A stretch of 40,524 nucleotides of DNA from the IMG/VR virus record IMGVR_UViG_3300045988_037302; one strand, written 5' to 3'. A program made the position numbers and the translations under genes. The notes beneath the pieces are model-generated. The model saw only the letters and a program-made list of their open reading frames with translations. It ran no database searches and was not told the DNA's origin. Source of the DNA: a virus. This document shows positions 2,603-28,361 of this stretch, in pieces (positions within the stretch are counted from its first letter, which is position 1; the number at the start of each line of letters is the position of its first letter).

Positions 2603-2625
2603 GACTAGAATTGGAGGGTAGTTAT

Positions 2626-3624
2626 ATGACAAAGGGAGAATTTGTGAATGATCTTATATATGACATGACTGGTTATCTGGATGCCGAGGGGACAGAGAGA
2701 TTAAAGATGGCGATTGCGTACCGCATGAAAGGGTTCCGCTTGATTCCGGATGAAACCTTACCCGCTACGGATGTAAGGGACAATGAGTGGATCCTTGGCA
2801 GATACCATGTGGATCTTATCGCTGTGGGACGGAAAGAAAAAACAATCGAAATGTATCTGTATATGCTTAAAAAGTTTTTTGATGAAACCGGACTTCATTA
2901 CGCAACAATGACCGGACAGGATGTGATGGACTACATAGCAATCCGGCAATACAGAGATAAGATCTCCAAGTCCTACGCCGGAAGCATACAAAAATGTCTG
3001 TCGGCGTTCGTGAAGTGGGCTTATCGCAAGCATCATATCGAACATGACATTTACTGGGATATAGATAAGATCAAAATCCCACAGAAGCGTAAAAAGAGGT
3101 TGTCTGACTATGAGGTGTCGAAGTGTAAGAATACCTTAAAGACTCTAAGAGAAAAGGCACTTCTGGAACTGATGCTTAGTGCCGGTCCTCGTGTGGGAGA
3201 GATCTGTAACTTAAAAATCGAAAATCTGGACTTTGAACGTGGGGAAATCCAGATTTACGGAGAAAAGAGCAGTAAATGGCGTACTTGCTTTATGACACCG
3301 GATTGCCGTGTAGCCTTGGAACAGTATGTGAGCGGCAGGACAGAAGGGTATATCTTTTTAAATAGCCGGAATGTGGAAACCGGGAAACCACTGTGTAAGG
3401 CAACAATCGAAGAAATCGCGAAAGAGATCGCAGAGCGTGCCGGATGCCGGAATGTTGCCACAGTGCATGTCTATCGTAAGACGTTTGCATCTAGGGAATA
3501 TCTCCGAACAAAGGATATTTTATATGTATCGCACAGACTGGGGCATGCAAACACAGCAGTCACGGAAAAATATTACATCTGTGACGACATTTTAGCAGAT
3601 CGTAAGATGGCAAACGTTGCTTAG
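2626..3624 (+). CDS. Tyrosine recombinase (XerC/XerD-like), second recombinase of the phage
   Basis: GGAGGG RBS lies 7 nt before ATG 2626. Catalytic-domain pattern seen: GPRVGE (Arg), HVYRKTFAS (His-x-x-Arg), LGHANTAVTEKYY (His...Tyr). It is not adjacent to attP. Confidence 0.85.
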   Translation: MTKGEFVNDLIYDMTGYLDAEGTERLKMAIAYRMKGFRLIPDETLPATDVRDNEWILGRYHVDLIAVGRKEKTIEMYLYMLKKFFDETGLHYATMTGQDVMDYIAIRQYRDKISKSYAGSIQKCLSAFVKWAYRKHHIEHDIYWDIDKIKIPQKRKKRLSDYEVSKCKNTLKTLREKALLELMLSAGPRVGEICNLKIENLDFERGEIQIYGEKSSKWRTCFMTPDCRVALEQYVSGRTEGYIFLNSRNVETGKPLCKATIEEIAKEIAERAGCRNVATVHVYRKTFASREYLRTKDILYVSHRLGHANTAVTEKYYICDDILADRKMANVA

Positions 3625-4592: not shown

Positions 4593-4600
4593 CATGCCCT

Positions 4601-8331: not shown

Positions 8332-8333
8332 AC

Positions 8334-10074: not shown

Positions 10075-10104
10075 AAAGTGCCTTGAAATATAGGCACTTT
10101 TTTG
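10075..10104 (+). terminator. Intrinsic terminator ending the packaging/portal operon
   Basis: aaagtgcct-tgaaatat-aggcacttt (9-bp stem) running into a T tract. Confidence 0.75.
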
Positions 10105-10112
10105 TATGCTCA

Positions 10113-10149
10113 AAATTGGTACAAATCTTTAATAATTCCATGATAAAAT
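10113..10149 (+). promoter_or_regulatory. Late-promoter-like element, copy 2 (AAATTGGTACAAAT-N17-TAAAAT)
   Basis: Same box and same 17-nt spacing as copies 1 and 3. Immediately follows a terminator. Confidence 0.6.
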
Positions 10150-10228
10150 TGTATTAACAAGTGAAAAGCACCGGACGGAGCGCAGGAATCCGTTCGCTAC
10201 CCTACAAAAATTATAGGATGGTCGATAT

Positions 10229-10260
10229 GGCACGTCCTGTTTGGGGCGTGCCTTTTTATT
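10229..10260 (+). terminator. Intrinsic terminator inside the leader between late-promoter copy 2 and the scaffold gene
   Basis: ggcacg-tcctgtttgggg-cgtgcc followed by tttttatttgtttttt. Preceded by a second hairpin cggacgga...tccgttcg (about 10171-10196). Confidence 0.65.
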
Positions 10261-10346
10261 TGTTTTTTGCCAGCTATGGAGTAAATAGCAACTCACTTGT
10301 GCCGGACTGACCGGAGCAACAACTTGGAAAGAGAGAGGTAAGAGAC

Positions 10347-10958
10347 ATGGTAAAGATTATCAGCGAGTTGGAAAAAATTGGGTTTGATATCACGGACGAA
10401 CAGAAGGAATCTATCAAGAAGAGTATTGGTGAGGAATTGTATTCCAAGCAGGAACTTGATAAGAAGATCTCGAAAGTTGAAACCGAGCGTGACAACTACA
10501 AAAAGCGCGCAGATACCGCGGAGGACACCTTGAAGGGGTTCGAGGGCAAAGATTTTGACGAAATCACGAAAGATCGTGACGAGTGGAAAAGAAAAGCGGA
10601 ACAGGCAGAAAAAGATTTCAATGCCAAAATTGCCGAGCGCGATAAAAACGATTTGTTGGAAAAGGCTTTCAAGGATATTAAATTTTCTTCTGAATCTGCA
10701 AAGAAAGCTGTTATGGCAGACATTGCAGCAAGCGTGACGGTGAAGGACGGGAAACTGATCGGTTTTAATGATTTGCTGGATGAAGCAAAAAAGAATGATG
10801 CAGGCGCATTTATTGACGAGCAGAGCCGGCAGAGCGATCAGAATCAGGCAACATTTACTACACCGATGGGAAGCGGTACTCATACCGAGCCGATTACTGG
10901 TGATCCGAATAAGATGGATTTTGCTACGTACAAGAAGTGGCGTGAGCAGAATCAGTAA
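10347..10958 (+). CDS. Scaffolding protein
   Basis: Highly charged K/E-rich protein that looks coiled-coil, directly upstream of the major capsid gene. RBS gagagagg. Confidence 0.7.
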   Translation: MVKIISELEKIGFDITDEQKESIKKSIGEELYSKQELDKKISKVETERDNYKKRADTAEDTLKGFEGKDFDEITKDRDEWKRKAEQAEKDFNAKIAERDKNDLLEKAFKDIKFSSESAKKAVMADIAASVTVKDGKLIGFNDLLDEAKKNDAGAFIDEQSRQSDQNQATFTTPMGSGTHTEPITGDPNKMDFATYKKWREQNQ

Positions 10959-10977
10959 TTTTTTGAGGAGGAATATT

Positions 10978-12069
10978 ATGGCAAACAAAATTTTAACACC
11001 GCAGATTATTGCAAATGAAGCATTGATGGTACTGCAGAGCAACCTTACAATGGCGAATCTTGTACATAGAGATTATTCCGGCGAGTTTGTAAAGGTTGGA
11101 GATACCATCACTGTACGAAAACCGGCTACGTTTGTGGCTAAGAACTTTACGGGACAGACAGAAGCGCAGGACATTACAGAGGGTTCTGTAACCGTTAAGA
11201 TGGACCGATTCAGAGATATCACGGTCAATGTTGGGTCTAAAGAAATGACATTAGACATTAAAAACTTCTCTGAGCAGGTGATAACACCAGCAATGCAGGC
11301 TATGGCACAACAGATTGATGCGGATCTTCTGGCAGTAGGCATTTCTAAGGCTGGAAAGAAAGCAACTGTATCTAAGACACCGACCATTACGGATATCGCA
11401 GGCGTAGGTAAAGCACTGGATCAGGCAAAAGCCCCACGTACAGACAGACGATTAGTCCTTCCGCCGACTATTCTGTACCAGTACAACACACTGGACAATT
11501 TTGCAAAACAGTGCTACAAGGGCGATTCTATTGCCTTGAAAGAGTCTGAAATTGGCAAGGTTTACACCTGCGAAACTTTCATGTCGCAGAACTGCCCGGA
11601 AAATCAGAATGATAAGGCAGGAACAGCTACTTCATACAAAGTAGCAGGAACCAAGGATGCCACTCAGTTCACAGTATCTTCTGGAAAGGCAGAAACCGCA
11701 ACCATTAACAAGGGAGATCAGCTGATTGTTAACGGATATCTGTATACTGTTACCGACAATGTGACACTTTCCGGTGGTGCTGGAACTGTAAAAGTGGATC
11801 AGAACATTCCGGAAACTGTAGCTGAAACAGACGCGTTTGTCGTAAGCAAGGCACACGCTCTTGGATTCCACAGAAATGGTCTTGCACTTGTAACACGTAA
11901 CCTTGAACTGCCGATGGGCAACAAGAACGCTTACATTGCATCTGCCGATGGCTTGGGTGTTCGTGTTGTATTCGATTACGACTCTGACCATAAGAAGGAC
12001 AAGATCTCTTTTGATATCATTTACGGCATCAAGGAACTCAACGAGAACCTGCTTGTTGACTTTTCATAA
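10978..12069 (+). CDS. Major capsid protein
   Basis: GAGGAGG RBS precedes ATG 10978 (the track start at 10768 overlaps the scaffold gene). 363 aa. The MANKILTPQIIANEALMVLQSNL N-terminus is typical of P22-coat-like Firmicutes phage capsid proteins. Follows the scaffold gene. Confidence 0.8.
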   Translation: MANKILTPQIIANEALMVLQSNLTMANLVHRDYSGEFVKVGDTITVRKPATFVAKNFTGQTEAQDITEGSVTVKMDRFRDITVNVGSKEMTLDIKNFSEQVITPAMQAMAQQIDADLLAVGISKAGKKATVSKTPTITDIAGVGKALDQAKAPRTDRRLVLPPTILYQYNTLDNFAKQCYKGDSIALKESEIGKVYTCETFMSQNCPENQNDKAGTATSYKVAGTKDATQFTVSSGKAETATINKGDQLIVNGYLYTVTDNVTLSGGAGTVKVDQNIPETVAETDAFVVSKAHALGFHRNGLALVTRNLELPMGNKNAYIASADGLGVRVVFDYDSDHKKDKISFDIIYGIKELNENLLVDFS

Positions 12070-12085
12070 GGAAAGGGGATTTCTG

Positions 12086-12493
12086 ATGGGATATACCACA
12101 TATGACTTCTACAAAGAAAAATACTATGGGGATTCTATCGAGGAATCCCTTTTCCCCAAGTGGGAAGATCGTGCATCTGACAAGTTGGATCAGTTGACCT
12201 ACGGGCGTATTGATGCTGCTGCAAAGGAAGAGTTTGACGAGAAAATACAGAAAGCCACCTGTGCACTAGCAGATCTGCTCTATAAGATCGACTTCAAAAC
12301 CAATCATGCGAATGATCCACAGGAGGGCAATGTAAAGTCCATGTCTTCGGGCGGTCAGTCGATCAGCTTTGGGACAAATGAAACTTTGGTGGATAAGGTG
12401 CTGAATGACAAGGTGGCACAGAATCGGTTGTGTTACGACACGGTATGCGAATACCTGTCCGGTACCGGATTACTTTATGCGGGGGTGATGTGA
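12086..12493 (+). CDS. Head-tail connector/adaptor protein (gp6-like)
   Basis: AAGGGGA RBS precedes ATG 12086. It is the first gene after the capsid gene. Size (135 aa) and position support the call. Confidence 0.5.
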   Translation: MGYTTYDFYKEKYYGDSIEESLFPKWEDRASDKLDQLTYGRIDAAAKEEFDEKIQKATCALADLLYKIDFKTNHANDPQEGNVKSMSSGGQSISFGTNETLVDKVLNDKVAQNRLCYDTVCEYLSGTGLLYAGVM

Positions 12494-12627
12494 TGTTTTT
12501 AAAGAGATTATTTTGCAAGCACAAAATGATGCCGTATGCGTACATGGACGTTCGCACCCACGGCAACCATTACGTCTGGAAACATATCTGGAAATGTACG
12601 AAATGTGGGAAGGAGAGTTGCCACTGA
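12493..12627 (+). CDS. Cys/His-rich micro-protein (44 aa)
   Basis: ATGA-type overlaps at both ends. Sequence MFLKRLFCKHKMMPYAYMDVRTHGNHYVWKHIWKCTKCGKESCH carries a CxxC and several His residues. Confidence 0.35.
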   Translation: MFLKRLFCKHKMMPYAYMDVRTHGNHYVWKHIWKCTKCGKESCH

Positions 12628-13067
12628 TGGGGCTTGGATTGTTTTACAACGACAAAGTTACGCTGTTTAACTACTTCTGCGATCCAGATACCGAGGAAGA
12701 AAAGTGTTATCTGACCTTATTGGAGAATGTGAACCTTGTGGAAACCAAGGGCGCGAATGTAACCAAGAGCGGCATGGATAGCGCGGATGCTGTGAAGCTG
12801 TATATCGATTTTGCCCGCCTTGGCAAAATGGGGAAACCATACATGGAGCCGAAAGCGTGGGATGCACTTCCGGACGATGAGAAGTCGAACTATATCACGT
12901 TCCACCCGACAGATGATTTTTTCATCAAAGGCGATCATACCGACTTGGAGATTCCAGAATCAGAAGCCTATGGATGGGCACATGACAATCTGGATTCTGT
13001 ATACAAAGTAACGACGGTAGACCGGTATGAGGACATCATGCCGCATTTTGAGGTTGGAGGTGTGTAA
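12627..13067 (+). CDS. Head-closure / neck protein (position-based)
   Basis: Translationally coupled ORF between the connector and the tail genes. Confidence 0.4.
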   Translation: MGLGLFYNDKVTLFNYFCDPDTEEEKCYLTLLENVNLVETKGANVTKSGMDSADAVKLYIDFARLGKMGKPYMEPKAWDALPDDEKSNYITFHPTDDFFIKGDHTDLEIPESEAYGWAHDNLDSVYKVTTVDRYEDIMPHFEVGGV

Positions 13068-13523
13068 TTGGAAGAGGTAGAGAAACTTACCATAAAAGAC
13101 GCGGAAAGTGCGCAGAATGCGGTGCTGGATCTGATTTTGCAGTATCCGGACTTTCCCAAGACGTTTAAGGCAAGCAATAAAAACGTGAAGTGGAACAGTA
13201 TCAACACTGATACTTCCATCGGAATTTACCCGCTGTCCGGTGCGCGGTATATAAAGAAATATGTGAGTGGCAGCTATACAGCACAGATGCCATTCCAGAT
13301 TGTATACCGAAGTTCCCCGACAAGCAACAAAACATCCATTGATGCACAGATGGTTCTGGAGAATTTGAGCAAATGGCTGGAAGATACCGGGATTGAATTT
13401 GCTGATCCACACATGACATTACAGGAAATCGCACGTACATCTGTAGTCCTGCCAATTATGCAGGATGAAAAACAGATGGGATACGGCGTAAATATGCAAC
13501 TTATATATTTTTACAAAAAATAA
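13068..13523 (+). CDS. Neck / tail-completion protein (position-based)
   Basis: TTG start directly after the upstream stop. 151 aa, immediately upstream of the major tail gene. Confidence 0.4.
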   Translation: MEEVEKLTIKDAESAQNAVLDLILQYPDFPKTFKASNKNVKWNSINTDTSIGIYPLSGARYIKKYVSGSYTAQMPFQIVYRSSPTSNKTSIDAQMVLENLSKWLEDTGIEFADPHMTLQEIARTSVVLPIMQDEKQMGYGVNMQLIYFYKK

Positions 13524-15304: not shown

Positions 15305-18300
15305 ATGGCAGATTATGATGGCAGCATAAGAATAAACACACAAATTGATACGAAAAACGCATCCAGCCAGATGCTACGTTTGGAGAACCAAATTTCCAAG
15401 GCTGCCAAGAAAGCGGCAGATCTTACCGAAAAGATGCGGCAGATGGAGAATCAGAAAGCACCTACAGAGGAATTTAAAGCTGTGCAGGAGCAAATTGACG
15501 ATGCACAAAAAAAACTGGATTCCCTAAATGCAAAAATGGAAAAATTTGTGCAGACTGGTGGGAAAACAGATAGTCGTACTTTTAAGGGAATGAGGTATGA
15601 TGCAGATCAGCTGATTAAGACAATTGAATATGCCAAAGGTGAAATGGCAGATATGCAATCCCGCGGTGGGGCATACATGAACGTTGGAGATGTGCAAGAG
15701 ACTGATGCATATAAAAAAATGGCATCTGATTTATCGGATGCAAATGCAAAAGTTTCGGAATTGTCGCGGAAACAAGAAGAACTTGCTTCCAAAGAATCTA
15801 AAGTCGGCGCACAAGCGGATAAAAGCAAAGGGGAAACATCTGGCTGGTTAGATTCTTTCAAATCCAAGGCAAGAGCTACAGGCGAGAAGGTTTCCGGGCT
15901 GGCATCCCGTTTGAAATCCGCAGGAGCATCACTTAAAAATTTTGTAACACATGGCAAAAGTGGAAGTGGAATGCTTGGGACGTTTGCATCCAGATTAAAA
16001 GGCATCGCACTTTCCATGTTTGTGTTTAACTGGATCACCAAGGCTTGGAATGCAATGCTTTCTGCTATAAAAGACGGAACAGGAAATATTGCAAAATATT
16101 CGGGAGATGTAAATGCCAAAATGTCACAGCTCACAAGTGCTGTGGCAACTCTTAAAAATGCATTTGCTGCATTGGCAGCTCCGATTATTAGTGCTGTTGC
16201 TCCAGCGCTTACTTCGTTAATAAATATGCTCACAGGGGCATTGAACAAGATAAACCAGTTTATATCTGCACTTACTGGCGGGAAAACGTGGATAAAGGCA
16301 ACGAAACAAGTAAAGAATTATGCCGGCGGACTAAAATCTGCATCTTCTGGTGCGGAAAAAGCGGCGAAATCTGCCAAAAAGTTAAAGGGACAATTACAAT
16401 CTTTTAACGAATTAAATGTGATTAGTTCGAACGATTCTGGTGGATCTGGTGGTGGATCTGGTGGAGGTGGGGGTGGCGGAGTTGGAGATATGTTCACGAC
16501 AGAGAACATTGATCCGAAAATTGCCAGCCTTGCAAAGAAGATAAAAGAAATTCTTAAAACCGATGACTGGTCTGAAATCGGAGAAATGCTTGGGAAAAAG
16601 CTGAATGATGCGCTGGCCGGAATTCCCTGGAACGGAATAAAAAAGCAGGCACGCCATATAGCAAGTGGCATTGCAACCTTATTAAATGGATTTCTTGATG
16701 GAACAAACTGGGAACTTGTTGGAAGCACTATTGCAGAAGGACTCAATACAGCTATTGCGTTTGCACAGACGTTTGTACATAAATTCGATTTTAAACAGTT
16801 TGGTAAATCTATAGGGGAAACATTTACAGGAATTTTCCGGACGTTCGATTGGAGCGGTTTAGGAGATACTCTTGGAACTGCAGTTACTGGTCTATTCGAT
16901 ACGCTTAATGGGATTTTTTATAATACCGATTGGAAAGCACTTGGAAAAGGAATTATTGATGGAATTGGAGCTTTTTTCAAGGCAATAAAGTGGAAGAGTA
17001 TTGGAAAATCTATAAGCGGAGCACTGCATTCCCTCTTAACTTTTTTGACTGGTGCGGTAAAGGAAATAGATTGGAAAAAAACCATTGAATACATTGGAAC
17101 ATCAATCGTAGATTTCTTTAAAGGATTTGACTGGAAGGGGCTTGCTGGAGATATTGGAGAGTTCCTTGGAACAGCACTTAAATCTGTGGTAAACCTTGCA
17201 AAAGCTATTGGAGAATTGATTGCGGATGGATTTAGTAATGCAAAAGAATATTTCCAAGACAAGATAGAGGAATGTGGCGGCAATATACCAAAAGGAATTT
17301 TAAAGGGAATAACAGATGCTCTTAAAAATATTGGAACATGGATTAAGAAAAATATATTTGATCCATTTGTGAAAGGATTTAAAGATGCGTTTGGTATCCA
17401 TTCTCCGGCAAAAAAGATGAAGCCTATTGGAAAGAATATATTCCTTGGTGTAATTGATGGTTGGAAAGAAAAGATAAAATCATTTAGCTTTTCAAAGTTG
17501 GCAAAAGAAGCCATTAAGTTAATTCAAAATGGATTTAATGGTGCAAAATCTGTAGTAAATGTTGCGATTTCTTTGATAAAAAAAGGCTGGACTACATTAA
17601 AGAAATTTGTCGGAGAAATAGGGGCGAAAGCTTTTTCTCTTGCAAAAAAAGGCTGGACTACAGTATCAAAATTTGTTGGAGAGATCGGCAAAAAAACATT
17701 TTCTCTTGCAAAAAAAGGCTGGACTACAGTATCTAAGTTTGTTGGAGAAATTGGTAAAAAAGGCTTTGGACTGAAAAAAGATGGCTGGACTACCTTAAAT
17801 AAGTATGTAGGAAAGTTGGATAAAGTAGCCGTGAAATTATATAAGAGCGGTTGGAAATCAATAAACAGCTTTGTGGGAACCACGGTAAAAGTTGGAATCC
17901 AGTTGATAAAAGATGGATGGAGCAGTTTTAAGAACTGGCTTGGAATTGGAAATGATAATTCTTCATCGAAGAAAAAAACATCCAAGAAAGCTGGCGGTGG
18001 AATCTATACCGGTGGTATGTGGCATAACATAGCACATTATGCAGTCGGAACCGAGAACGCACCAGCAGGACAGCTTTTTATCGCGCGTGAAGCAGGACCG
18101 GAGCTTGTCGGAACAATTGCAGGACATACGTCCGTTATGAACAATGACCAGATTGTGGCATCTGTATCGGATGGAGTTGCGCGTGCGGTACGATCCGTAA
18201 TGGCAACCGGAAACCAGAATGTAAATGTTCTGTTTAAAGTGGAAGGAGATCCGAATGGAATCTTCCGTGTGACGCAGCAAAAAGCCAATGAATACTACCG

Positions 18301-18331
18301 GGCAACCGGAAACCCAGCATTTGAATTTTAG
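15305..18331 (+). CDS. Tape measure protein
   Basis: 1008 aa. Has an N-terminal coiled-coil-like region, hydrophobic A/G-rich segments, a Gly run and W/F-periodic repeats. Canonical position. Confidence 0.9.
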   Translation: MADYDGSIRINTQIDTKNASSQMLRLENQISKAAKKAADLTEKMRQMENQKAPTEEFKAVQEQIDDAQKKLDSLNAKMEKFVQTGGKTDSRTFKGMRYDADQLIKTIEYAKGEMADMQSRGGAYMNVGDVQETDAYKKMASDLSDANAKVSELSRKQEELASKESKVGAQADKSKGETSGWLDSFKSKARATGEKVSGLASRLKSAGASLKNFVTHGKSGSGMLGTFASRLKGIALSMFVFNWITKAWNAMLSAIKDGTGNIAKYSGDVNAKMSQLTSAVATLKNAFAALAAPIISAVAPALTSLINMLTGALNKINQFISALTGGKTWIKATKQVKNYAGGLKSASSGAEKAAKSAKKLKGQLQSFNELNVISSNDSGGSGGGSGGGGGGGVGDMFTTENIDPKIASLAKKIKEILKTDDWSEIGEMLGKKLNDALAGIPWNGIKKQARHIASGIATLLNGFLDGTNWELVGSTIAEGLNTAIAFAQTFVHKFDFKQFGKSIGETFTGIFRTFDWSGLGDTLGTAVTGLFDTLNGIFYNTDWKALGKGIIDGIGAFFKAIKWKSIGKSISGALHSLLTFLTGAVKEIDWKKTIEYIGTSIVDFFKGFDWKGLAGDIGEFLGTALKSVVNLAKAIGELIADGFSNAKEYFQDKIEECGGNIPKGILKGITDALKNIGTWIKKNIFDPFVKGFKDAFGIHSPAKKMKPIGKNIFLGVIDGWKEKIKSFSFSKLAKEAIKLIQNGFNGAKSVVNVAISLIKKGWTTLKKFVGEIGAKAFSLAKKGWTTVSKFVGEIGKKTFSLAKKGWTTVSKFVGEIGKKGFGLKKDGWTTLNKYVGKLDKVAVKLYKSGWKSINSFVGTTVKVGIQLIKDGWSSFKNWLGIGNDNSSSKKKTSKKAGGGIYTGGMWHNIAHYAVGTENAPAGQLFIAREAGPELVGTIAGHTSVMNNDQIVASVSDGVARAVRSVMATGNQNVNVLFKVEGDPNGIFRVTQQKANEYYRATGNPAFEF
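17575..17945 (+). repeat. Tandem 66-nt (22-aa) repeats inside the tape measure gene (six or more copies, two nearly identical)
   Basis: ggctggacta recurs at 17585, 17651, 17717 and 17783 (period 66). Protein units are KKGWTT(L/V).KFVGEIG.K.FSLA. Confidence 0.85.
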
Positions 18332-20964: not shown

Positions 20965-21676
20965 CAGGACGTATTGGGAGAACTTCCCGAGTGAAAAAAC
21001 CGCCATGAATGAGAAACGGCTAAACAACGCCGAAAAAGGGATTGACGATCTGGATGATCGTATAGTTGCTATGGACGCGGCAAAAGTCGATCTTGTCAAG
21101 GCGAATAATCTTGTAGAAGAAATTACTTACGAGGAAGCAACCGGCATATTGACTGTTACTAAAATGAATGGTTCTAAAGCTGTCATTGATACTAAGCTGG
21201 AAAAGCTGGCCGTAAACTTTACATATGATCCGCAGACACAGCAGCTGATTATTACACTTGATGATGGCACCACGCAGAATGTTGATTTGTCTGCGCTGAT
21301 TACAGAATATGAATTTCTTGATTCCGATACGATCGCATTTGAGATTACAGACGGCAAAATCAAAGCTATCGTAAAGAATGGTTCCATTACGGAAGATATG
21401 CTGCAACCGAACTTCTTGGCAGATGTTAAAGTTGAAGCCGAAAAAGCGAAAGCATCAGCATCCGCTGCGGATGCGTCAGAAAAGGAATCCACGGTACAAG
21501 CTAATCTATCCAAAGAGTATGCGGATAAGGCCAAGGAATACAGCGATAACATTGATAAAAAAGCTCATCTGGCAACATTTGATGTGAATGAGGACGGCGA
21601 GTTGATCTATACAGATAACACAGCAGATGTGTTTACCGTTGATGATAACGGGAATTTGAATTGGGAGGTGGCTTAG
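20948..21676 (+). CDS. Tail fibre protein
   Basis: N-terminal YWENFPSEKTAMNEKRLNNAEKGIDDLDDRI is a common Firmicutes phage fibre N-terminus. Alanine-rich coiled segment. Sits within the fibre cluster. Confidence 0.55.
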   Translation: MQKIYSRTYWENFPSEKTAMNEKRLNNAEKGIDDLDDRIVAMDAAKVDLVKANNLVEEITYEEATGILTVTKMNGSKAVIDTKLEKLAVNFTYDPQTQQLIITLDDGTTQNVDLSALITEYEFLDSDTIAFEITDGKIKAIVKNGSITEDMLQPNFLADVKVEAEKAKASASAADASEKESTVQANLSKEYADKAKEYSDNIDKKAHLATFDVNEDGELIYTDNTADVFTVDDNGNLNWEVA

Positions 21677-21677
21677 A

Positions 21678-22478
21678 ATGGCTATAGCAGGAAGAGTAGC
21701 AATCGTGCCAAAAGGCGATTGGAGCGCAGATGCTACATATAAGAGATTGGATGCAGTGACTTATAACAATGCGCTTTATTTCGCAAAAAAGGATGTGCCG
21801 GCAGGAACGGCAACAAGCAATACAGAATATTGGTCGAAGTCGATTGTGGGTGGTGTCGGTGCAATCGCAACGAAAGAGGATGCCGGGAATGTGAAACCTG
21901 CAGACGGACTTTCGATTGCAGAAGATGGAACCCTTAAGGTAAGCATTGATGGCACGACCCTTACAATGGATCAGGTCAACAATGTAATCAAGTTGGCAGA
22001 TGCCTTAAAAGAAAAAATCGGAAGCGCACTGCAACCGGAAAGTATCGTAAACAATCAGGTTACAACAGAAGCTGGATTCGCACTTGATGCGCGGCAGGCT
22101 AACCCGAATATAGACGGCACGCTGGCGAAACAGGTAAGTGATTTAAACGGCAGTTTAAAAATTAAAATTGTTCAATGGACACCATATTGTCCTCGAACAG
22201 ATTTTGCAGATAAGGTTAAGCTTAGCGAAGCGATGGCACTACGATACGGATCTTTAGTAATTTGCGCTATACGTATTGATTTATCTGAAAATACTCCTGG
22301 CAAATATGTTTCTATTGTAAATTTACCAACAAAATTGTTTACTGGTATCAACCAAACAAACATGGACGGAAAAGAAGGTAAATGGTATTTAGATAAAAAC
22401 ACAGCTAGTGTCTTTTTGCGAAGCGTATTTGAAGCCGGCACGTATTGGCTTAACTTCATGTATCTAGAAGCAGAATAA
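21678..22478 (+). CDS. Tail fibre / receptor-binding protein; constant part 21678-22159 plus currently expressed variable 3' cassette 22160-22478
   Basis: N-terminal GRVAIVPKGDWSADATYKRLDAVTYNNALYFAKKD is a fibre-type motif. The inverted repeat at 22143-22159 lies in frame (LNGSL). Confidence 0.7.
   Translation: MAIAGRVAIVPKGDWSADATYKRLDAVTYNNALYFAKKDVPAGTATSNTEYWSKSIVGGVGAIATKEDAGNVKPADGLSIAEDGTLKVSIDGTTLTMDQVNNVIKLADALKEKIGSALQPESIVNNQVTTEAGFALDARQANPNIDGTLAKQVSDLNGSLKIKIVQWTPYCPRTDFADKVKLSEAMALRYGSLVICAIRIDLSENTPGKYVSIVNLPTKLFTGINQTNMDGKEGKWYLDKNTASVFLRSVFEAGTYWLNFMYLEAE
22143..22159 (+). repeat. Left inverted repeat (ttaaacggcagtttaaa) of the putative invertible segment
   Basis: Perfect 17-bp reverse-complement match to 22773-22789. 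The site itself has dyad symmetry: TTTAAA-CGGCAG-TTTAAA. Confidence 0.9.
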
Positions 22479-22480
22479 AA

Positions 22481-22772
22481 TTAAATATCATACAAAATAA
22501 AATTGCCTTCCCAAACTTGTACCAAACAAAGAGTGGTACTTCGTGGACTTGCAAGTAACCCAATACCATAATTTAAAGTATCTAAACCATTCCACGAAAA
22601 TATAATAAGCGAGTAATCACCTACATTTTTGAAAGTCGTTACGTGTTTAGATATTGAACTATAGAAATTATCTTCTATTGTGTCTACGTGGTATATTCCA
22701 CATCCACCAGATACTTGCGATGCCGAAGACCAATTATTGATTATTTTTCTGAACTTAAAATTATTTAAGTCA
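22481..22772 (-). other. Silent alternative 3' cassette for the tail fibre gene (97 codons + stop), opposite strand
   Basis: Open frame on the minus strand that reads LNGSL through the right IR in the same codon phase as the fibre gene. No SD precedes its only upstream ATG (22810). It sits tail-to-tail, 2 bp from the fibre stop. Confidence 0.7.
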
Positions 22773-22789
22773 TTTAAACTGCCGTTTAA
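22773..22789 (-). repeat. Right inverted repeat of the putative invertible segment
   Basis: The + strand reads tttaaactgccgtttaa, the reverse complement of 22143-22159. Confidence 0.9.
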
Positions 22790-22856
22790 GAAAATGTATC
22801 GAACAAACATTCGAACGTAACTTATAAACCATTTTTATAGAAAGGAATTAAAAAAC

Positions 22857-23255
22857 ATGGATAAAATTATTTTAAAAGATCAGACCAGCTTCGAGGTTGC
22901 CGATGGTGCAAGCCTTGGAAACATCCAGATCAAAGCCGAGAACTTCGAAGCCATTAAAACGATCACGGATGCTTTCGCAGAGGACAACCTTGCGGAAGTA
23001 ACTTTTAAACACAATGATGAGGTATCCGGAAAGTACACCGATCTGAAGTGTGATGGGTTTACATACGCACCGAATACGGACGAGGACGGGAAAGAGGATG
23101 GAACGTACACCGTCACAATCCGCCTTAGAACCAAAACCGACATTGAAAAGCGTCTGGATGCATTGGAAGCCGGACAGGTAACTCTGCAGCAGGGGCACGA
23201 GTCCAACGCCGGAGCGATTGAAGATCTGGCCGGAATTATCGGAGGTGAAGAATAA
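22857..23255 (+). CDS. Hypothetical protein (XkdW-position)
   Basis: ORF between the fibre cluster and the XkdX-like micro-gene. No diagnostic motif. Confidence 0.45.
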   Translation: MDKIILKDQTSFEVADGASLGNIQIKAENFEAIKTITDAFAEDNLAEVTFKHNDEVSGKYTDLKCDGFTYAPNTDEDGKEDGTYTVTIRLRTKTDIEKRLDALEAGQVTLQQGHESNAGAIEDLAGIIGGEE

Positions 23256-23383
23256 TGGCATGTGTAAACCTTATAAAATTCTATGTGCGCAGAATCACAA
23301 CCGACAAGAAAATTACGATTGATGATGTACCGGAACGCTGGCGTGAACAGGTACGGGCAGAAATTGAAAAGGCAGAGCAGTAA
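23255..23383 (+). CDS. XkdX-like small protein (42 aa)
   Basis: Hand-translated as MACVNLIKFYVRRITTDKKITIDDVPERWREQVRAEIEKAEQ. Overlaps the upstream stop. Size and position match PBSX-like XkdX. Confidence 0.4.
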   Translation: MACVNLIKFYVRRITTDKKITIDDVPERWREQVRAEIEKAEQ

Positions 23384-23405: not shown

Positions 23406-23442
23406 AAATTGGTACAAAATCAATCTTGGCATCTATTACAAT
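23406..23442 (+). promoter_or_regulatory. Late-promoter-like element, copy 3 (AAATTGGTACAAAA-N17-TACAAT)
   Basis: Same box and spacing as copies 1 and 2. Precedes the lysis cassette. Confidence 0.6.
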
Positions 23443-23473
23443 ATAGTTAGGAAACTTCGGAAGGAGTGAAATC

Positions 23474-23815
23474 ATGTGGTCTAAAACTTATAACGAGCGT
23501 CGGCTTACCAGAGTTGAGGCACGCGCTAAATCGAATACACACAGAATCGATAAACTGGAACCAATTGTTGAGGAGATACATACAATGAGTGAAACGATGG
23601 TGCAGTTGGTCGAGGAAGTAAAGCATACTAACGAGAATGTGTGCGCCTTGGATGAGAAGATTGATAGCATGGATGCTCGCGTCGATGTTATGGAACGCGC
23701 ACCGGCAGAAGATGTTAAAAAATATAAGTCAGTCGCTATAACTGCAATCATCAGTACGATTTCCACAGCATTGGCTATTGGATTGGTTTCGATGATTGCT
23801 CAATATATCAAATAA
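23474..23815 (+). CDS. xhlA: XhlA-like lysis-associated membrane protein
   Basis: N-terminal helical region (RLTRVEARAKSNTHRIDKLE...) with a single C-terminal TM (VAITAIISTISTALAIGLVSMIAQ). Located upstream of the holin, as in PBSX. Confidence 0.6.
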   Translation: MWSKTYNERRLTRVEARAKSNTHRIDKLEPIVEEIHTMSETMVQLVEEVKHTNENVCALDEKIDSMDARVDVMERAPAEDVKKYKSVAITAIISTISTALAIGLVSMIAQYIK

Positions 23816-23834
23816 GAAAGAAGAGGTATTTAAT

Positions 23835-24059
23835 ATGAAGAATTGTGTATTTAAAGCAAACGTAGACACTGTTAAATGGTTCAAAGCCGCTGGAATCCGT
23901 GCTGTGAAAACAATGGCACAGACCGCTGTTGCAGTGATCGGTACTGCCGCTGTGGTATCGTCTGTGGATTGGAAGCTGGTCGTATCATCTGCAATTGTAT
24001 CTGGTGTAGTATCGCTGCTCACCAGCGTAGCAGGAATACCAGAAGTGAAGGAGGAGTAA
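23835..24059 (+). CDS. Holin
   Basis: 74 aa with two hydrophobic segments (TMAQTAVAVIGTAAVV and LVVSSAIVSGVVSLLTSVAG) and a charged C-terminus. Sits immediately upstream of the endolysin. ATG 23835 has an AAGAGG RBS. Confidence 0.7.
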   Translation: MKNCVFKANVDTVKWFKAAGIRAVKTMAQTAVAVIGTAAVVSSVDWKLVVSSAIVSGVVSLLTSVAGIPEVKEE

Positions 24060-24065
24060 TTACAT

Positions 24066-24614
24066 ATGAAAATCAACGTACATGCCGGGCACAACCCGGA
24101 TGGAAAGATCGCCTGCGGTGCTGTTGGACTCATCAAGGAGTCCACAGAGGCACGCAAGGTCAAGAAAGAAGTGATCCGACTCCTTAGAAAGAAAGGGCAC
24201 AAGGTGTATGATTGTACCTGCACCAATGGGACAAGCCAGACTGATGTCCTGAAGCGGATCGTAACAAAGTGCAACAAGCACAAGGTGGATCTGGATATTT
24301 CGATTCATTTTAATTGTGGAGTCGGGGATAAGAAAGGCAATGGTAAGACGACCGGAACGGAAGTGTATGTGTACAGTGAGAAAAGCGCAGCGAAGCCGGC
24401 GGCAGAACGTGTCGTTAAAGACATTGCGGCTCTTGGATTCAAAAACCGTGGAGTAAAGATCCGGACTGATCTGTATGTGTTGCGCCGAACCAATTCTCCG
24501 GCCATGCTGATCGAGTGCTGTTTTGTGGATGATAAGGACGATGTGGAGCTGTATTCTTACAAGAAGATGGCGGCAGCAATTGTTACTGGGATTCTTGGAC
24601 AAGCGGTTAAGTAG
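24066..24614 (+). CDS. Endolysin, N-acetylmuramoyl-L-alanine amidase (Amidase_3 type), catalytic domain only
   Basis: HAGHNPDG...GAVG, SIHFN and ECCFVDDKDD match the Amidase_3 zinc-ligand pattern. At 182 aa there is no obvious cell-wall-binding domain. Confidence 0.8.
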   Translation: MKINVHAGHNPDGKIACGAVGLIKESTEARKVKKEVIRLLRKKGHKVYDCTCTNGTSQTDVLKRIVTKCNKHKVDLDISIHFNCGVGDKKGNGKTTGTEVYVYSEKSAAKPAAERVVKDIAALGFKNRGVKIRTDLYVLRRTNSPAMLIECCFVDDKDDVELYSYKKMAAAIVTGILGQAVK

Positions 24615-24855: not shown

Positions 24856-25863
24856 TCAAAGAAGATGGTTTTCAAAATATCCGTTTGCCTGATCGGAATA
24901 TTTTTTTGAAAAATCCGATCTGGTACCGCGGTATACCTGATTCAGAACCGTGTTGGTTTTCCAACCACCACGCTCCATGATGTATGCTTCTGGTACACCC
25001 ATTGCGTGCATGATTGTGGCTGCATAGTGACGCAGATCATGGAAACGAAAATGTGGCAATCCAAGTTTTTTTATCGTGCGTCCGAAATCATGCGTAATCA
25101 TATCCGGGTTAAGATTGCAGATTTTGCCGGAAACAGGAAGTTCTTTAATGACTTTATCTGGATATTCAACATAACGATCAGATGTACTATTTTTGGCAAC
25201 TGATTTTAGTACCCATTTATAATTTTGATTCTTTACCATTGTTTGATGAACATGCACCGTATTTCCTTGTATGTCATCTGCATATAATCCACACACTTCT
25301 GATCTTCGTAATGTTCCAATAGATGCAAGAAGAATTGCAACGTATAGATCATAGTTTGCTGTTTTGGTATAGGAAAGCAATGATTGCAGTTCTTCGTCCT
25401 TTGGAATATAGTATTGTAAGATTTCTTTTTGGGGCATAGTAACACGAAATGATGCATCCGGTATTTGCAGGCGTATGACTGCACAGAGTAGGCTGTATGC
25501 GTTTCGAACGGTCTTGGGCGAATGTTTCCCCGCAAATTCATTTATAAAGCCAACAACTGTGTTCTGGTCAATTTCTGATACATCCATATCTTTGATTGGA
25601 TCGTAATATTTTTCCATCTGCCTGTAGCCGCGCAGAGTGGACGGAGAGAGCACATTGGATTTGGATTCTATGTATCTGGCAAGGGCATCTTTGAATGTGA
25701 TTCTGTCCGGTGTGGAGCGTTCTTCGGCATAATTCAGTGCCAGCCGTTCTGCTTCACGCTTGGTTGCTGCTGTAAATGACTTGTAGTGTTTCTTCCCCTG
25801 TTCATCCTCACCAAGGAAGAGCCGTGCTCTCCAAGATCCGGATGGTAATTTCCTTGCATTCAT
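24856..25863 (-). CDS. int: Tyrosine integrase
   Basis: AGGAGG RBS. N-terminal arm-binding-type region (KLPSGSWRARLF). The C-terminal HDLRHYAAT...GGWKTNTVLNQVYRG supplies His-x-x-Arg and the Tyr. Adjacent to attP. Confidence 0.9.
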   Translation of the reverse strand: MNARKLPSGSWRARLFLGEDEQGKKHYKSFTAATKREAERLALNYAEERSTPDRITFKDALARYIESKSNVLSPSTLRGYRQMEKYYDPIKDMDVSEIDQNTVVGFINEFAGKHSPKTVRNAYSLLCAVIRLQIPDASFRVTMPQKEILQYYIPKDEELQSLLSYTKTANYDLYVAILLASIGTLRRSEVCGLYADDIQGNTVHVHQTMVKNQNYKWVLKSVAKNSTSDRYVEYPDKVIKELPVSGKICNLNPDMITHDFGRTIKKLGLPHFRFHDLRHYAATIMHAMGVPEAYIMERGGWKTNTVLNQVYRGTRSDFSKKYSDQANGYFENHLL

Positions 25864-26006: not shown

Positions 26007-26309
26007 TTAATTTACTTTCCAAGTATTTCCACAGTTTTGGCAAATTGCAACAGTGTGGTTGATGGTTTTATCGGCATGTACGTTAATTCCGCCAAGGCTA
26101 TGGCGTTTAAAGAATAAATTCCACCACCAACCGATTAAAATGAAATATAAAGGTTTCCACCACCAACCGATAATAATCCAGTAAAGGCAACTATGGCCTT
26201 TGGAATTCTGAATGGTTACTTTGTTTGTGCCGGCTCCGATGCTTCCGGTTTGTTCCCTTTGAAATGTAATGTTGTTGCTACTACATTTGGGGCAAGTTGC
26301 TTGTGCCAT
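26007..26309 (-). CDS. Split zinc-ribbon membrane protein with duplicated W-rich TM segment
   Basis: GGAGG RBS. CPKC at the N-terminus and CQNC at the C-terminus flank IIGWWWKPLYF / ILIGWWWNLFF. The underlying DNA repeat is ccaccaccaaccgat at 26121 and 26157. Confidence 0.6.
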   Translation of the reverse strand: MAQATCPKCSSNNITFQREQTGSIGAGTNKVTIQNSKGHSCLYWIIIGWWWKPLYFILIGWWWNLFFKRHSLGGINVHADKTINHTVAICQNCGNTWKVN

Positions 26310-26322
26310 AATAAATTCCTCC

Positions 26323-27276
26323 TTATATGTGATTAATCATATTTTGCAATTTATCTCTATCCCATAGTTTTACTCCCAATGCTTTTGCTTCCTCCTGTGC
26401 CTGCTGCGTAAAATATTGATTTGTGAGTACAACAGCAATATCTTTATGATATAAACTCTTTCCGGTATGTGCCTGCTGCACAGCAGCATTTCCAATATTG
26501 GAAGAGTAGCATTTACACTGGATTGCGTAAGTTATATCGTCTTTTTCAGCGAGGATGTCAATGCCGTGATCCCCACTTCCTTGTGTTACTTCAACATTTG
26601 TAAAACCATTGTTTTCTAATACCCCAGCACAATAATGTTCAAATTCTAACCCGCTCATAGTGTCAAAATTTTTATAACCATTTTTGCTTTCGGGAGAGTA
26701 TATATCATCAAGAGTATTTTCTTCCCCTGTCAAAATTGCTCCGTCTAACATCCTTTGCAAAGTCTGGAAATCGACAAGCACAGTTCTTGGTGTTGTCCCA
26801 ACCTCTGGCCCGACAATTCCAGCAGCTTCTAACTGATTCATTATTGTCATTGCGCGATTGAAACCAATTTTTAATTGCCTTTGTAACGTTCCAATAGTTG
26901 CCTTCTTATTATTTACTACAATATCCGCAGCTTCTATGAAAAAAGGATCTGCATCCGGCATATATATCGGTGTAGCCTTGGAACGCTTGTTGAATTTTTC
27001 TATTGCTGCAGGTTTAGATGCAATAACCTTATGTAAATCATCGGAAGGCTTACTGTCAAATGGAACAAAATCTTCATAGCTTGTTAATTCTGTTAGTGCA
27101 TCGACCATTTTATCATATGTGGCATAGAATTCCTTTTCGTTCAATGTTGTATTGACTATTTCGGCAAGATGATTGCATTTTTCGAGTAATAAAGAAGCCT
27201 CTTTTACATTTTCATATTCGCTTTTAAATCGATGTTTAATTTTTTTTAAAATCATATCGCATAAATTCCTTGTCAA
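26323..27276 (-). CDS. FtsK-gamma-like winged-helix + Mrr-type (PD-(D/E)xK) restriction endonuclease domain fusion protein
   Basis: DPFFIEAADIVVNNKKATIGTLQRQLKIGFNRAMTIMNQLEAAGIVGP closely follows the FtsK gamma-domain sequence as I recall it. The C-terminal LEFEHYCAGVLENNGF...GDHGIDILAEK...YAIQCKCY matches the Mrr_cat pattern. 4-nt overlap with ImmA. Confidence 0.7.
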   Translation of the reverse strand: MTRNLCDMILKKIKHRFKSEYENVKEASLLLEKCNHLAEIVNTTLNEKEFYATYDKMVDALTELTSYEDFVPFDSKPSDDLHKVIASKPAAIEKFNKRSKATPIYMPDADPFFIEAADIVVNNKKATIGTLQRQLKIGFNRAMTIMNQLEAAGIVGPEVGTTPRTVLVDFQTLQRMLDGAILTGEENTLDDIYSPESKNGYKNFDTMSGLEFEHYCAGVLENNGFTNVEVTQGSGDHGIDILAEKDDITYAIQCKCYSSNIGNAAVQQAHTGKSLYHKDIAVVLTNQYFTQQAQEEAKALGVKLWDRDKLQNMINHI

Positions 27277-28216: not shown

Positions 28217-28361
28217 ATAGACATACCTCGGTAATACGAACTGATTCGTTGACCAGACGAGATAATTCGGTTTAGTGATTTAATTCGTTTTGACAAACTT
28301 AATATATCACTAAACCGAGGTATACACAAGTATAAAATCCATACAAAAAGGAGGGATATTT

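Follow-up and report, generated by a model that had tools for sequence, protein, structure and literature searches.

A probable DNA inversion switch for the tail-fibre tip of a putative Roseburia phage

How could a single tail-fibre gene provide a phage with two alternative tips, and which enzyme would exchange them? The question is raised by the IMG/VR record IMGVR_UViG_3300045988_037302 (hereafter the window, meaning the whole stretch of 40,524 nucleotides that was analysed), which represents a complete circular genome of 40.4 kb with a 77-bp terminal overlap. An exact 17-nt inverted repeat, TTAAACGGCAGTTTAAA, has one arm inside a fibre gene and the other beyond its end, with 613 nt between the arms (Table 1). 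We consider it highly probable that site-specific inversion of DNA in this region switches the distal, probably receptor-binding, end of the tail fibre. The constant part of the protein (aa 1-155) would join the tip at the pentapeptide L-N-G-S-L, encoded by the 17/18-bp site, while a second, inverted copy of the site 613 bp downstream encloses two unrelated tip cassettes arranged tail to tail. Recombination between the sites would then flip the segment and fuse the constant part in frame to either tip A, the present state of 266 aa, or tip B, yielding 257 aa, with the unused cassette remaining silent.

The repeat search recovered the exact 17-bp repeat to which the first-pass annotation had drawn attention. 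It is the sole perfect inverted repeat of at least 16 nt with arms no more than 5 kb apart in the whole window, and the longest exact one with arms up to 2 kb apart. A length of 17 nt was attained in one of 300 first-order Markov simulations of the window (~0.3% per genome), and the motif matches in the window exceeded those of all 100 dinucleotide shuffles. Exactly two sites are present, even when up to three mismatches are allowed. The parse proposed earlier, TTTAAA-CGGCAG-TTTAAA, is still compatible with the site, but an 18-bp near-palindrome, TTTAAAC-GGCA-GTTTAAA (TTTAAACGGCAGTTTAAA), where one position pair breaks the symmetry, describes it better. Judged by its sequence, with short inverted arms and a slightly asymmetric centre, the site looks like the core of a tyrosine-recombinase target.

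Translation showed L-N-G-S-L to be in frame in both arms, and inversion in silico generated a 257-aa product, both as foreseen in the first-pass annotation. The fibre N-terminus matches the tail-fibre family PHROG 5073 (E 1.1e-5) as well as the N-termini of other phages' fibres, and in approximately 60 of the best 120 of 2,981 matches the constant part is joined to non-homologous tips, the joint always reading ...NGSL. Weak similarity between the two tips, and hence one common fold, had also been proposed. Nothing is however shared beyond LNGSL (BLASTP E = 23; hhalign probability 0.2%), and a single fold is unsupported, as the tips lack sequence similarity and the model of tip B is uninformative: at a pLDDT of 59, this AlphaFold model gave no meaningful fold match in Foldseek. 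The corresponding model of tip A (pLDDT 68) has weak matches to the head of the receptor-binding protein of lactococcal phage TP901-1 and to adenovirus fibre heads (E 0.03-0.2, TM ~0.5). The tips would presumably bind receptors; the model-based fold matches of tip A are weak (E above 0.02).

Table 1. Features of the fibre switch and its surroundings; positions refer to the window.
Feature	Position	Strand	Evidence or remark
IntA, Xer-like tyrosine recombinase, candidate invertase	2611..3624	+	Pfam PF00589, E 3.3e-25
Fibre ORF	21678-22478	+	266 aa
Constant start of the tail-fibre gene (aa 1-155), ahead of the junction	21678..22142	+	PHROG 5073 match
Left recombination site, inverted-repeat arm	22143..22159	.	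Encodes L-N-G-S-L, where constant and variable parts meet
Tip A cassette, currently expressed form, 111 aa including LNGSL	22143..22478	+	ORF, in-frame junction
Invertible 613-bp segment with both tips	22160..22772	.	G+C ~31% versus 42-49% in the flanks
Tip B cassette, silent at present, 102 aa with LNGSL and a stop codon after it	22481..22789	-	ORF, in-frame junction
Minus-strand ORF	22481-22810	-	109 aa
Right recombination site, inverted-repeat arm	22773..22789	.	Repeat and motif searches
Conserved gene (132 aa) immediately beyond the right arm, regularly found beside the switch	22857..23255	+	Site-adjacent in 98/120 loci
Lysis cassette linking the phage to Roseburia faecis	23407..24584	+	90.8% identical in nucleotides to its counterpart in the R. 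faecis element
IntB, phage-integrase-type tyrosine recombinase beside the lysogeny module	24856-25863	-	Pfam PF00589 and PHROG 1

The stop codons of the fibre ORF and of the minus-strand ORF lie 2 bp apart, tail to tail, and the latter frame might simply be an ordinary independent gene, with the inverted repeat a coincidence. Gene callers do often annotate it as a protein of 108-148 aa, but start signals are absent: as pointed out before, no Shine-Dalgarno sequence precedes the ATG at 22810, and a promoter-like site is missing there too. The frame is furthermore fused to the constant fibre part in many genomes, such a repeat has a low chance of arising by coincidence, the same site recurs across at least 120 contigs, and the inverted segments described below contradict an independent gene, leaving this explanation with virtually no credence. 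A diversity-generating retroelement was also considered and rejected, as no reverse-transcriptase family is found among the Pfam matches of the genome, and no long direct repeat surrounds the fibre.

The opposite orientation, sought in related phage genomes, is present in nature. In contig L001, the inner 613 bp are reverse-complemented at 99.2% identity to the window (5 mismatches), between collinear flanks that are 88% and 80% identical. A protein from this contig, P0084, combines the constant part with the tip B that is 'silent' in the window, at 98% identity, equivalent to the predicted 257-aa inverted product. Two further public contigs, L152 and L354, the latter from sample SRR10692682, share the same A/B cassette pair and have flanks of 10,485 bp and 1,900 bp at 100.000% identity; the sole difference over 13 kb is an exact inversion of 651 bp, arms included. 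Both orientations yield full-length fibres, and P0145 is exactly the predicted flipped protein, with tip B as its C-terminus; its 90% cluster comprises 57 members, one of them on 145 contigs. Thus, relatives possess the repeat as well as the reverse cassette, congruent with the original proposal of a switch that inverts 613 bp under a constant N-terminus. Alternative configurations occur in nature, a comparison between assemblies and not within one read set. The breakpoints are always located exactly at the site, in L001, in L152/L354 and in two R. faecis contigs that are considered below.

The flipped protein of this very strain was absent from a collection of 15 billion proteins on exact look-up, as were 9 of 10 predicted flipped proteins of other loci (1 of 11 found overall). 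Its absence would fit a frozen relic, where the cassette pair arrived horizontally without a cognate recombinase, the orientation became fixed and tip B is never used. No recombinase adjoins the switch, and the closest backbone relatives have single-tip, non-invertible fibres. Against such freezing, the two arms match perfectly and the 102 codons of tip B form an unbroken frame, the identical pair has been flipped in a phage that has no recombinase in the 10 kb upstream or the 18.5 kb downstream of its fibre, and in the probable host these sites border a recombinase gene. We therefore regard a relic as improbable, and an operating switch as the preferred reading.

The site is widespread. Our census detected it on at least 120 viral contigs, with 91 inverted pairs spaced by 429-909 bp that bracket ~40 cassette families; seven families are present in both orientations, and nineteen tip types occur on either side. 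LNGSL was encoded by the site in every one of the 18 loci for which flipped products were computed. Larger arrays exist as well, with six sites in contig L458 and four in the RecS/RecS2 loci described below. The site core, TAAACGGCAGT, is nearly invariant among 184 distinct sites of other contigs and is kept even at synonymous codon positions across the ~40 otherwise unrelated cassette families, with conservation ending abruptly at the core edges, which argues for selection on a protein-binding site. Among arm variants, positions 14-16 follow the cassette and position 0 follows the flank, placing the crossover inside the invariant core.

This conservation bears on whether the inversions could result from short-homology recombination or template switching at the 17-bp repeat, with no dedicated recombinase, as the many site-carrying phages without a recombinase near the fibre might hint. 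Seventeen bp is however very short for homologous recombination, and neither the preserved synonymous positions with their sharp edges nor the unvarying breakpoints match such a route; a recombinase gene moreover lies between the sites in every RecS-family locus examined. Accordingly, we deem this very improbable, and site-specific recombination by a dedicated enzyme remains the favored explanation.

The inner segments are 99-100% identical where the flanks are only 80-95% identical. Such AT-rich cassettes, with a G+C of ~31% against ~45% and far better conserved than their surroundings, suggest from sequence comparison that tips are exchanged between phages. Megablast of positions 21400-23300 against GenBank phages gave no match, and a protein search of the same phages returned only an N-terminal fibre motif of ~50 aa in unrelated phages, so a cultured relative is lacking. 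Scanning of the GTDB species genomes with the fibre produced no match, and with the constant-part alignment as query only one distant match, in Oscillospiraceae. The host was instead approached via a recombinase family.

This family, RecS, consists of Xer-like tyrosine recombinases that are encoded between pairs of these sites in other elements. A site pair lies within ~1 kb of the RecS-family gene in 18 of 18 loci, and pairs are found on both sides in 11 of them. RecS displays weak matches to the tyrosine-type DNA invertase models NF007370 and NF007371 (NCBIfam). A 327-aa homologue, RecS2 (P0173, on 783 contigs), is encoded between two pairs of the same sites in a prevalent chromosomal element of Roseburia faecis that has a contractile tail (PBSX-like) and is possibly a tailocin; the flanking host genes encode exact R. 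faecis proteins. Two R. faecis contigs with flanks of 99.8-100% identity differ by cassettes that have been swapped and inverted between the pairs, and the element also holds a cassette of the tip B type. Its lysis genes resemble those of the phage (98.2% amino-acid identity for a 113-aa protein and 95.5% for the amidase), and it encodes a 58% identical homologue of the 132-aa gene next to the right arm, for which no Pfam or PHROG match was detected. The host of the phage is thus probably R. faecis, judging by shared lysis and fibre modules and not by an integration site or CRISPR spacer.

The phage itself encodes only two recombinases, IntA and IntB, both of the tyrosine type. Among all ORFs of 60 aa or more in the whole genome, none matches PF00239 or PF07508, in agreement with the earlier statement that a serine invertase is missing. 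That statement was accompanied by the view that the relevant tyrosine recombinase is encoded far from the switch, which holds for IntA, at a distance of ~18.5 kb, but overlooked IntB, 2 kb downstream. IntB is probably the phage integrase and the less likely invertase: it is essentially unrelated to RecS (E 0.037), and is 99.7% identical in relatives that have a single-tip fibre and no right arm.

The first-pass annotation had the switch driven by the phage's own IntA, there delimited as 2626-3624, despite the distance. Several observations favor this enzyme. The genome is complete and has just the two recombinases, of which IntB occupies the canonical integrase position, leaving IntA as a spare enzyme, and the fibre repeat is the only perfect inverted repeat of at least 16 nt with arms within 5 kb in the genome. 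IntA alone is homologous to the cassette-embedded RecS and RecS2 (32-33% identity over the full length, E 1e-33), its catalytic R, H-x-x-R, H and Y residues are intact in an alignment with the RecS family, and the best NCBIfam matches of IntA, as of RecS, are of the XerA/XerC/XerD types, below the model cut-offs. On the other hand, 32% identity is low for sharing a 17-bp specificity. IntA is also found in relatives with a single-tip fibre and no right arm (contigs 032079, 024651 and 3300029246_000335), and a close IntA is present on only 27 IMG/VR contigs and was not detected in most of the site-pair phages. The gene is accessory and precedes that of the small terminase subunit, the same slot that distant relatives occupy in many phages, and when contigs with IntA, with the fibre and with the small terminase subunit were compared, no clean association of IntA with invertibility emerged. 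Ancestry of the backbone accounts for its presence here, rather than joint transfer with the cassettes. Other inverted repeats near the IntA gene, as possible targets, were not convincing. Taken together, we find it doubtful that IntA drives the switch. An FtsK-gamma domain, tried as an Xer activator beside IntA, turned out to belong to an Mrr-nuclease fusion protein near IntB.

Other site-carrying phages provide no common enzyme. In the 55-60-kb phages, no recombinase was found within 10 kb of the fibre on either side, and a conserved 398-aa integrase at the prophage ends, IntC, is the only recombinase found; contig 046384 has none in its replication module, and the phage documented to invert has no serine recombinase in the 18.5 kb downstream of the fibre. 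Site carriers encode at least four non-orthologous tyrosine recombinases, RecS, IntA, IntB and IntC, and hence no phage gene explains all cases.

As no RecS-type gene is located next to the switch in this phage, the enzyme would act in trans, and may be supplied either by the host or by IntA. The candidates are the RecS-family gene of the contractile-tail element in the probable host and the phage's own distant homologue; of these, the enzyme resident in the host, a relative of the recombinase embedded among cassettes, is at least as good a candidate as IntA. Since two inverted copies of a single universal site enclose every cassette pair, co-resident elements could, we propose, exchange cassettes in the same manner. 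This leads to a broader scheme that we put forward tentatively, as a possibility that falls short of even chances: one 17-bp site and one Xer-like recombinase family would sustain a shared exchange of tip cassettes among otherwise unrelated Roseburia mobile elements, with most phages, including the present one, relying on the invertase of a host-resident element for flipping of tips and swapping of cassette pairs. The partners would be the 40-kb and 55-60-kb siphovirus-like temperate phages and the nearly ubiquitous R. faecis contractile-tail element. The enzyme of the latter would invert the tips of phage fibres in trans and, by recombining twice at the paired inverted sites, swap whole cassette pairs between co-resident elements, which would explain how AT-rich cassettes of 99-100% identity come to lie within flanks of 80-95% identity.

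Abundant in the human gut, Roseburia species produce butyrate, and little is known of their phages. A reversible switch combined with a large shared pool of tips would let temperate phages and a tailocin-like host element change adsorption specificity within a population, and new specificities would pass laterally from one element to another. Such switching matters for predicting host range from metagenomes, and for understanding the breaks at the fibre gene in assemblies of these phages. The system offers a concrete, testable case of a phage that relies on an invertase encoded elsewhere in the cell and, for engineering, a defined 17-bp site and a small recombinase would make a ready-made means of swapping cassettes in receptor-binding proteins.

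How does the locus relate to established switches? The classical examples are the 'Din' serine invertases of the Mu G segment (Gin), the P1 C segment (Cin), the e14 P segment (Pin) and the p15B multiple inversion system (Min), where inversion changes the host range. There too, the constant start of the fibre is joined to alternative C-terminal tips at an inverted repeat inside the coding sequence; Din invertases act in trans across elements, and tip cassettes are common to unrelated phages, as cited in PMC6109161. In Din systems, however, a serine invertase is encoded beside the segment, acting at 26-bp sites with a 2-bp crossover and with a Fis-bound enhancer, and the hosts are enterobacteria, whereas the present genome lacks a serine recombinase, the enzymes associated with the site are tyrosine recombinases of the Xer-like kind and the hosts are Gram-positive Lachnospiraceae. 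The 18-bp site is presumably unlike gix. Among tyrosine recombinases, Rci of the R64/IncI shufflon performs inversion only, at short sites that start each in-frame C-terminal cassette of the adhesin PilV. The target in R64 is the tip of a conjugative pilus, with seven sfx sites and rci adjacent, as opposed to a phage fibre with two sites.

A phage example is the Rin shufflon of Bifidobacterium prophages (Mavrich et al. 2018). Its phage-encoded tyrosine invertase is XerD-like and armless, and it serves a receptor-binding protein whose N-terminus is constant and whose variable C-terminal cassettes all have a short site in front; these cassettes bear a weak resemblance to the receptor-binding protein of TP901-1 (PMC6109161), and the shufflon is also reported from Eggerthella lenta prophages (PMC8778435). 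Its architecture matches the four-site RecS/RecS2 loci. Rin differs from the present system in its 11-bp site, rix (TTCCCTAACCC), and in its hosts, Actinobacteria, and the Rin recombinase always flanks the cassettes, while the window has two sites only and no adjacent recombinase. The closest match to the architecture of the window is instead a second bifidophage inversion of ~500 bp, with an 8-bp site and no flanking recombinase, described from one pairwise comparison (PMC6109161). There too, a simple inversion with two states involves the 3' end of one structural gene together with a small gene facing it, and the invertase is presumed to be supplied in trans. The site differs though, and here a source of the trans enzyme can be proposed and the same genome is seen in both states. 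In BV01-like phages of Phocaeicola vulgatus (2026 preprint), fibre-end cassettes are rearranged at short motifs, with all configurations present in reads (PMC13596623). These too are temperate gut phages with cassettes overlapping the distal end of the fibre gene, yet with a Bacteroidota host, a 10-bp motif (TGGGAGAACT), three cassettes and an adjacent recombinase.

Compared to the general layout of tyrosine shufflons, both cassettes of the window have an in-frame site at the 5' end. The window however contains exactly two sites where shufflons have at least three, and the nearest recombinase gene, that of IntB, is 2 kb off beyond the lysis genes; in the RecS/RecS2 loci, the recombinase does lie beside the cassettes. 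This family appears undescribed. The arrangement at large, which the first-pass annotation suggested may be undescribed for Firmicutes-type siphoviruses, has precedents in the bifidophage tyrosine shufflons on receptor-binding proteins and in the ~500-bp bifidophage inversion with no flanking recombinase (PMC6109161). The principle of the switch is already known from Mu G/Gin and the Rin shufflon, and the present family would extend fibre switching by tyrosine recombinases from phages of Actinobacteria and Bacteroidota to those of Lachnospiraceae.

Recomputation confirmed the exact inverted repeat TTAAACGGCAGTTTAAA that the first-pass annotation had reported around 613 bp of the fibre gene region, with L-N-G-S-L read from both 17-nt arms, each in its own frame. 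It is the longest exact inverted repeat within 2 kb in the window and the sole perfect one of at least 16 nt with arms within 5 kb; when the window was simulated 300 times with a first-order Markov model, 17 nt were reached once. The site forms an 18-bp near-palindrome, TTTAAAC-GGCA-GTTTAAA, whose symmetry is broken at one position pair, and owing to this near-symmetry a match with two mismatches is also obtained on the opposite strand. The stop codons of the two opposing frames are 2 bp apart, and G+C is ~31% inside the segment versus 42-49% in the flanks. In-silico inversion joins fibre residues 1-155 to the other cassette, yielding 257 aa, the length anticipated by the annotation. We also agree that the minus-strand cassette has no Shine-Dalgarno before its ATG, and a promoter-like site is likewise absent upstream. 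Two further repeats were noted: one of 17 nt with one mismatch around the lysin and IntB genes, probably a chance occurrence, and a 29-nt imperfect palindrome (79% complementary, 4-nt loop) between divergent lysogeny and early genes, which looks like an operator.

The exact terminal direct repeat identifies the window as a complete circular assembly of ~40.4 kb, with a C5 cytosine methylase gene crossing the junction between end and start. Neither a serine recombinase, as the annotation had stated, nor a reverse transcriptase is encoded in the window. The lysogeny module includes a possible defence or exclusion gene, whose 317-aa product combines an FtsK-gamma winged-helix domain with a restriction endonuclease domain of Mrr type.

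Features of the window phage genome, in gene order
Feature	Coordinates	Strand	Remarks
Terminal direct repeat	1-77 and 40448-40524		77 bp, exact
IntA, second tyrosine recombinase	2611-3624		Xer type; upstream of small terminase subunit
Small and large terminase subunits, then portal and capsid genes			start of gene order
Tape measure	15305-18331		after capsid genes
734-aa protein			Peptidase_S74 domain; after tape measure
242-aa protein			between 734-aa protein and fibre
Fibre ORF	21678-22478	+	266 aa; then conserved 132-aa protein
Inverted repeat arms	22143-22159 and 22773-22789		613 nt apart
Minus-strand frame	22481-22810	-	opposes fibre ORF
Holin-like genes and Amidase_3 lysin			after 132-aa protein
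Lysis cassette	23407-24584		
One-mismatch inverted repeat	24071-24087 and 26072-26088		
IntB, tyrosine integrase	24856-25863	-	with lysogeny module, after lysin
FtsK-gamma/Mrr fusion	26326-27276	-	adjoins IntB
Imperfect palindrome	28262-28323		

The inverted state was recovered from related phages. The public protein P0084 matches the prediction in length (257 aa) and has the silent tip of the window at 98% identity. On its contig, L001, both flanks are collinear with those of the window (88% and 80% identity), and the 613 bp enclosed by the repeats can be aligned solely in reverse complement, at 5 mismatches. The strongest evidence for an inversion switch is provided by the contigs L152 (IMG/VR 3300045988_046384) and L354 (Logan SRR10692682_19754), which hold the same pair of cassettes as the window, where tip A is expressed and tip B silent. 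Their flanks, 10,485 bp upstream and 1,900 bp downstream, agree at 100.000% identity, and their sole difference is an exact inversion of 651 bp including the arms, with a full-length fibre encoded in each state. Mis-assembly is an unlikely origin of this difference, as assemblers commonly use k-mers longer than the 17-19 nt of the arms. The two-cassette anatomy is established, and precise inversion at the sites occurs in nature. The annotation, which had proposed to look for the opposite orientation in related phages, is thereby supported in its claim that inversion swaps the fibre tip. The B form is common, with P0145 in a 90% cluster of 57 members, one of which is present on 145 contigs. Separately, five IMG/VR contigs (L155, L160, L182, L186 and L205) stop 60-85 bp past the left site (~10466-10567), L168 ends at the same place without a recognisable site, and many contigs with homologues of RecS2, a cassette-embedded recombinase, are only 1-3 kb, suggesting that coexistence of several configurations within one sample interrupts assembly at the invertible region.

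Assignment of the 266-aa gene as a tail fibre rests on four points: an N-terminal motif matching fibre families, a position with tail genes on one side and lysis genes on the other, the homologous junction in a contractile-tail element, located in the gene following Baseplate_J and Gp48, and a model of tip A (pLDDT 68) with weak matches to the TP901-1 receptor-binding protein head and adenovirus fibre heads. The model of tip B (pLDDT 59) returned no meaningful structural match. No relationship between the two tips was detected, and the weak similarity claimed for them was rejected; both would represent receptor-binding domains. Among 120 listed fibre homologues (2,981 in all), about 60 have the constant part in common and diverge exactly after ...NGSL into non-homologous tips. 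P0063 and P0066, with a constant part identical in alignment to window 21678-22142 yet other, unrelated tips, point to recent tip replacement on one backbone allele. Tip A is also joined to a different constant region ending ...DDKITEINGSL, with I for L (P0015, P0016, P0020, P0028 and others), indicating that the cassette crosses between distinct fibre shafts.

The exact 17-mer was found in at least 120 stretches of IMG/VR contigs. These loci include 91 inverted pairs, enclosing 429-909 bp and representing ~40 inner-segment families, seven of which occur in both orientations relative to the constant part; 19 tip types are either fused to it or in silent position. Conservation is limited to the site, which is universal, and its core TAAACGGCAGT is almost invariant among 184 distinct sites, partly by construction since resemblance to the motif was how sites were collected. 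The three inner positions have variants that go with the cassette, and the outermost-position variant goes with the flank, placing the exchange inside the core. Inner segments are often 99-100% identical between phages with flanks only 80-95% identical; L154 and L225, for example, have 643 bp in common at 100%, inverted, between flanks of 95% and 91%. Together with the different pairings of cassettes, the identical constant parts with different tips and the low G+C, these sequence comparisons point to horizontal exchange of cassettes, which paired inverted sites would also permit between elements. The closest backbone relatives of the window phage (L156-L165; L164 10001-10861) carry a one-tip fibre of 286 aa; their left site has one mismatch and the right arm is missing. 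The window phage is therefore a mosaic that acquired the invertible module; IntB is 99.7% identical in L162 and L164, the latter with the same holin. A 453-bp one-tip segment between sites (L003 8139-8625; L456 8931-9417; L185) keeps one orientation in 12 of 12 viral loci and is inverted in the Roseburia faecis contigs L456 and L459, where the fibre is truncated, with 35 unrelated residues before its end. The flipped product of L185 would stop directly after LNGSLN. This segment may be an on/off rather than an A/B switch.

In some loci RecS, a 333-aa Xer-like tyrosine recombinase, lies between two site pairs ~2 kb apart, with silent cassettes starting with LNGSL downstream. Searching with RecS yielded 327-aa proteins, 54-55% identical to it, that form a very large family. 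RecS2, the exact sequence P0173, is present on 783 contigs, and is found in bacterial contigs of 226-443 kb within a contractile-tail, PBSX-like element ordered tape measure, sheath initiator, Baseplate_J, Gp48, fibre (378-446 aa), 126-aa and 37-aa proteins, RecS2, cassettes, holins and amidase, directly followed by cotJB, cotJA, gltX, pcrA and sigK. The flanking proteins are exact R. faecis sequences, and the number of contigs with exact RecS2 marks the element as extremely prevalent. In L456-L459 (~7000-13500) it has a four-site fibre shufflon with embedded recombinase. Each RecS2 locus has four copies of the same site, save L458 with six, where the recombinase and the 126-aa and 37-aa genes form a unit present twice; before its tip the fibre ends ...ARQANPNLDGTLAKQVADLNGSL. 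Between two R. faecis contigs with flanks 99.8-100% identical, cassettes are swapped and inverted between two pairs, with the recombinase gene in unchanged orientation, a difference that can be explained by three successive inversions.

The lysis cassette of the window is 90.8% identical in nucleotides to that of the R. faecis element (amino acids: 113-aa protein 98.2%, amidase 95.5%), which also holds a tip B-type cassette at 75-76% amino-acid identity. Thus, judged from sequence, R. faecis or a close relative is very probably the host of the window phage, and a cell of this kind already carries a recombinase gene with identical sites on its flanks.

A site pair lies within ~1 kb of the gene in all 18 RecS-family loci retrieved, on both sides in 11; in related elements the recombinase is embedded between sites. 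Inversion would be catalysed by a RecS-family tyrosine recombinase; a process without a dedicated recombinase is unlikely. For the window phage the invertase may be supplied in trans by the resident R. faecis element or, slightly less probably, be IntA. IntB, essentially unrelated to RecS (E 0.037), is an unlikely invertase. IntA is homologous to RecS (32% identity over full length, E 1e-33) with its catalytic residues kept; it is nevertheless an accessory gene that does not follow invertibility: it occurs in close backbone relatives having a one-tip fibre without right arm, is missing from others, and was undetected in most site-pair phages. The 55-60-kb phages, with most of the site pairs, have in common another recombinase, the 398-aa integrase IntC. 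Such one conserved site with several non-orthologous phage recombinases argues for a common enzyme in trans. IntC (L365 293-1486, minus strand; L376-L455) recurs at 98-100% identity in at least 80 contigs of 55-60 kb and often lies ~100 bp from a contig end, delineating a large, homogeneous temperate phage group that carries most invertible fibres. In many phages of 33-40 kb (L340, L297, L298, L330) the position of IntA ahead of the small terminase subunit is taken by Xer-like recombinases 26-58% identical to it, in L340 by a tandem (2626-3657 and 4591-5556).

Aggregated, the observation is confirmed and the inversion interpretation supported. Interest is raised by the scale of the system, by the occurrence of one site both in siphovirus-like phages and in a contractile-tail element on the chromosome of a key gut commensal, and by an invertase likely encoded elsewhere in the cell. 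The 17-mer is absent from the searchable literature, where, with incomplete coverage, we found no description of this switch family in Lachnospiraceae phages. The functional logic is that of Mu G/Gin and P1 C/Cin; the window system is outside that family, with its own site and no serine invertase. Rin, from a shufflon in Bifidobacterium prophages, was the first phage tyrosine invertase to be reported (PMC6109161). It has also been observed in prophages of Eggerthella (PMC8778435), and BV01-like Bacteroidota phages have a comparable shufflon (PMC13596623); by architecture, the RecS and RecS2 loci are of the same kind as the Rin shufflon. The layout of the window, two sites and no neighbouring recombinase, is most closely matched by a second bifidophage inversion of ~500 bp, for which a trans-acting invertase was proposed (PMC6109161).
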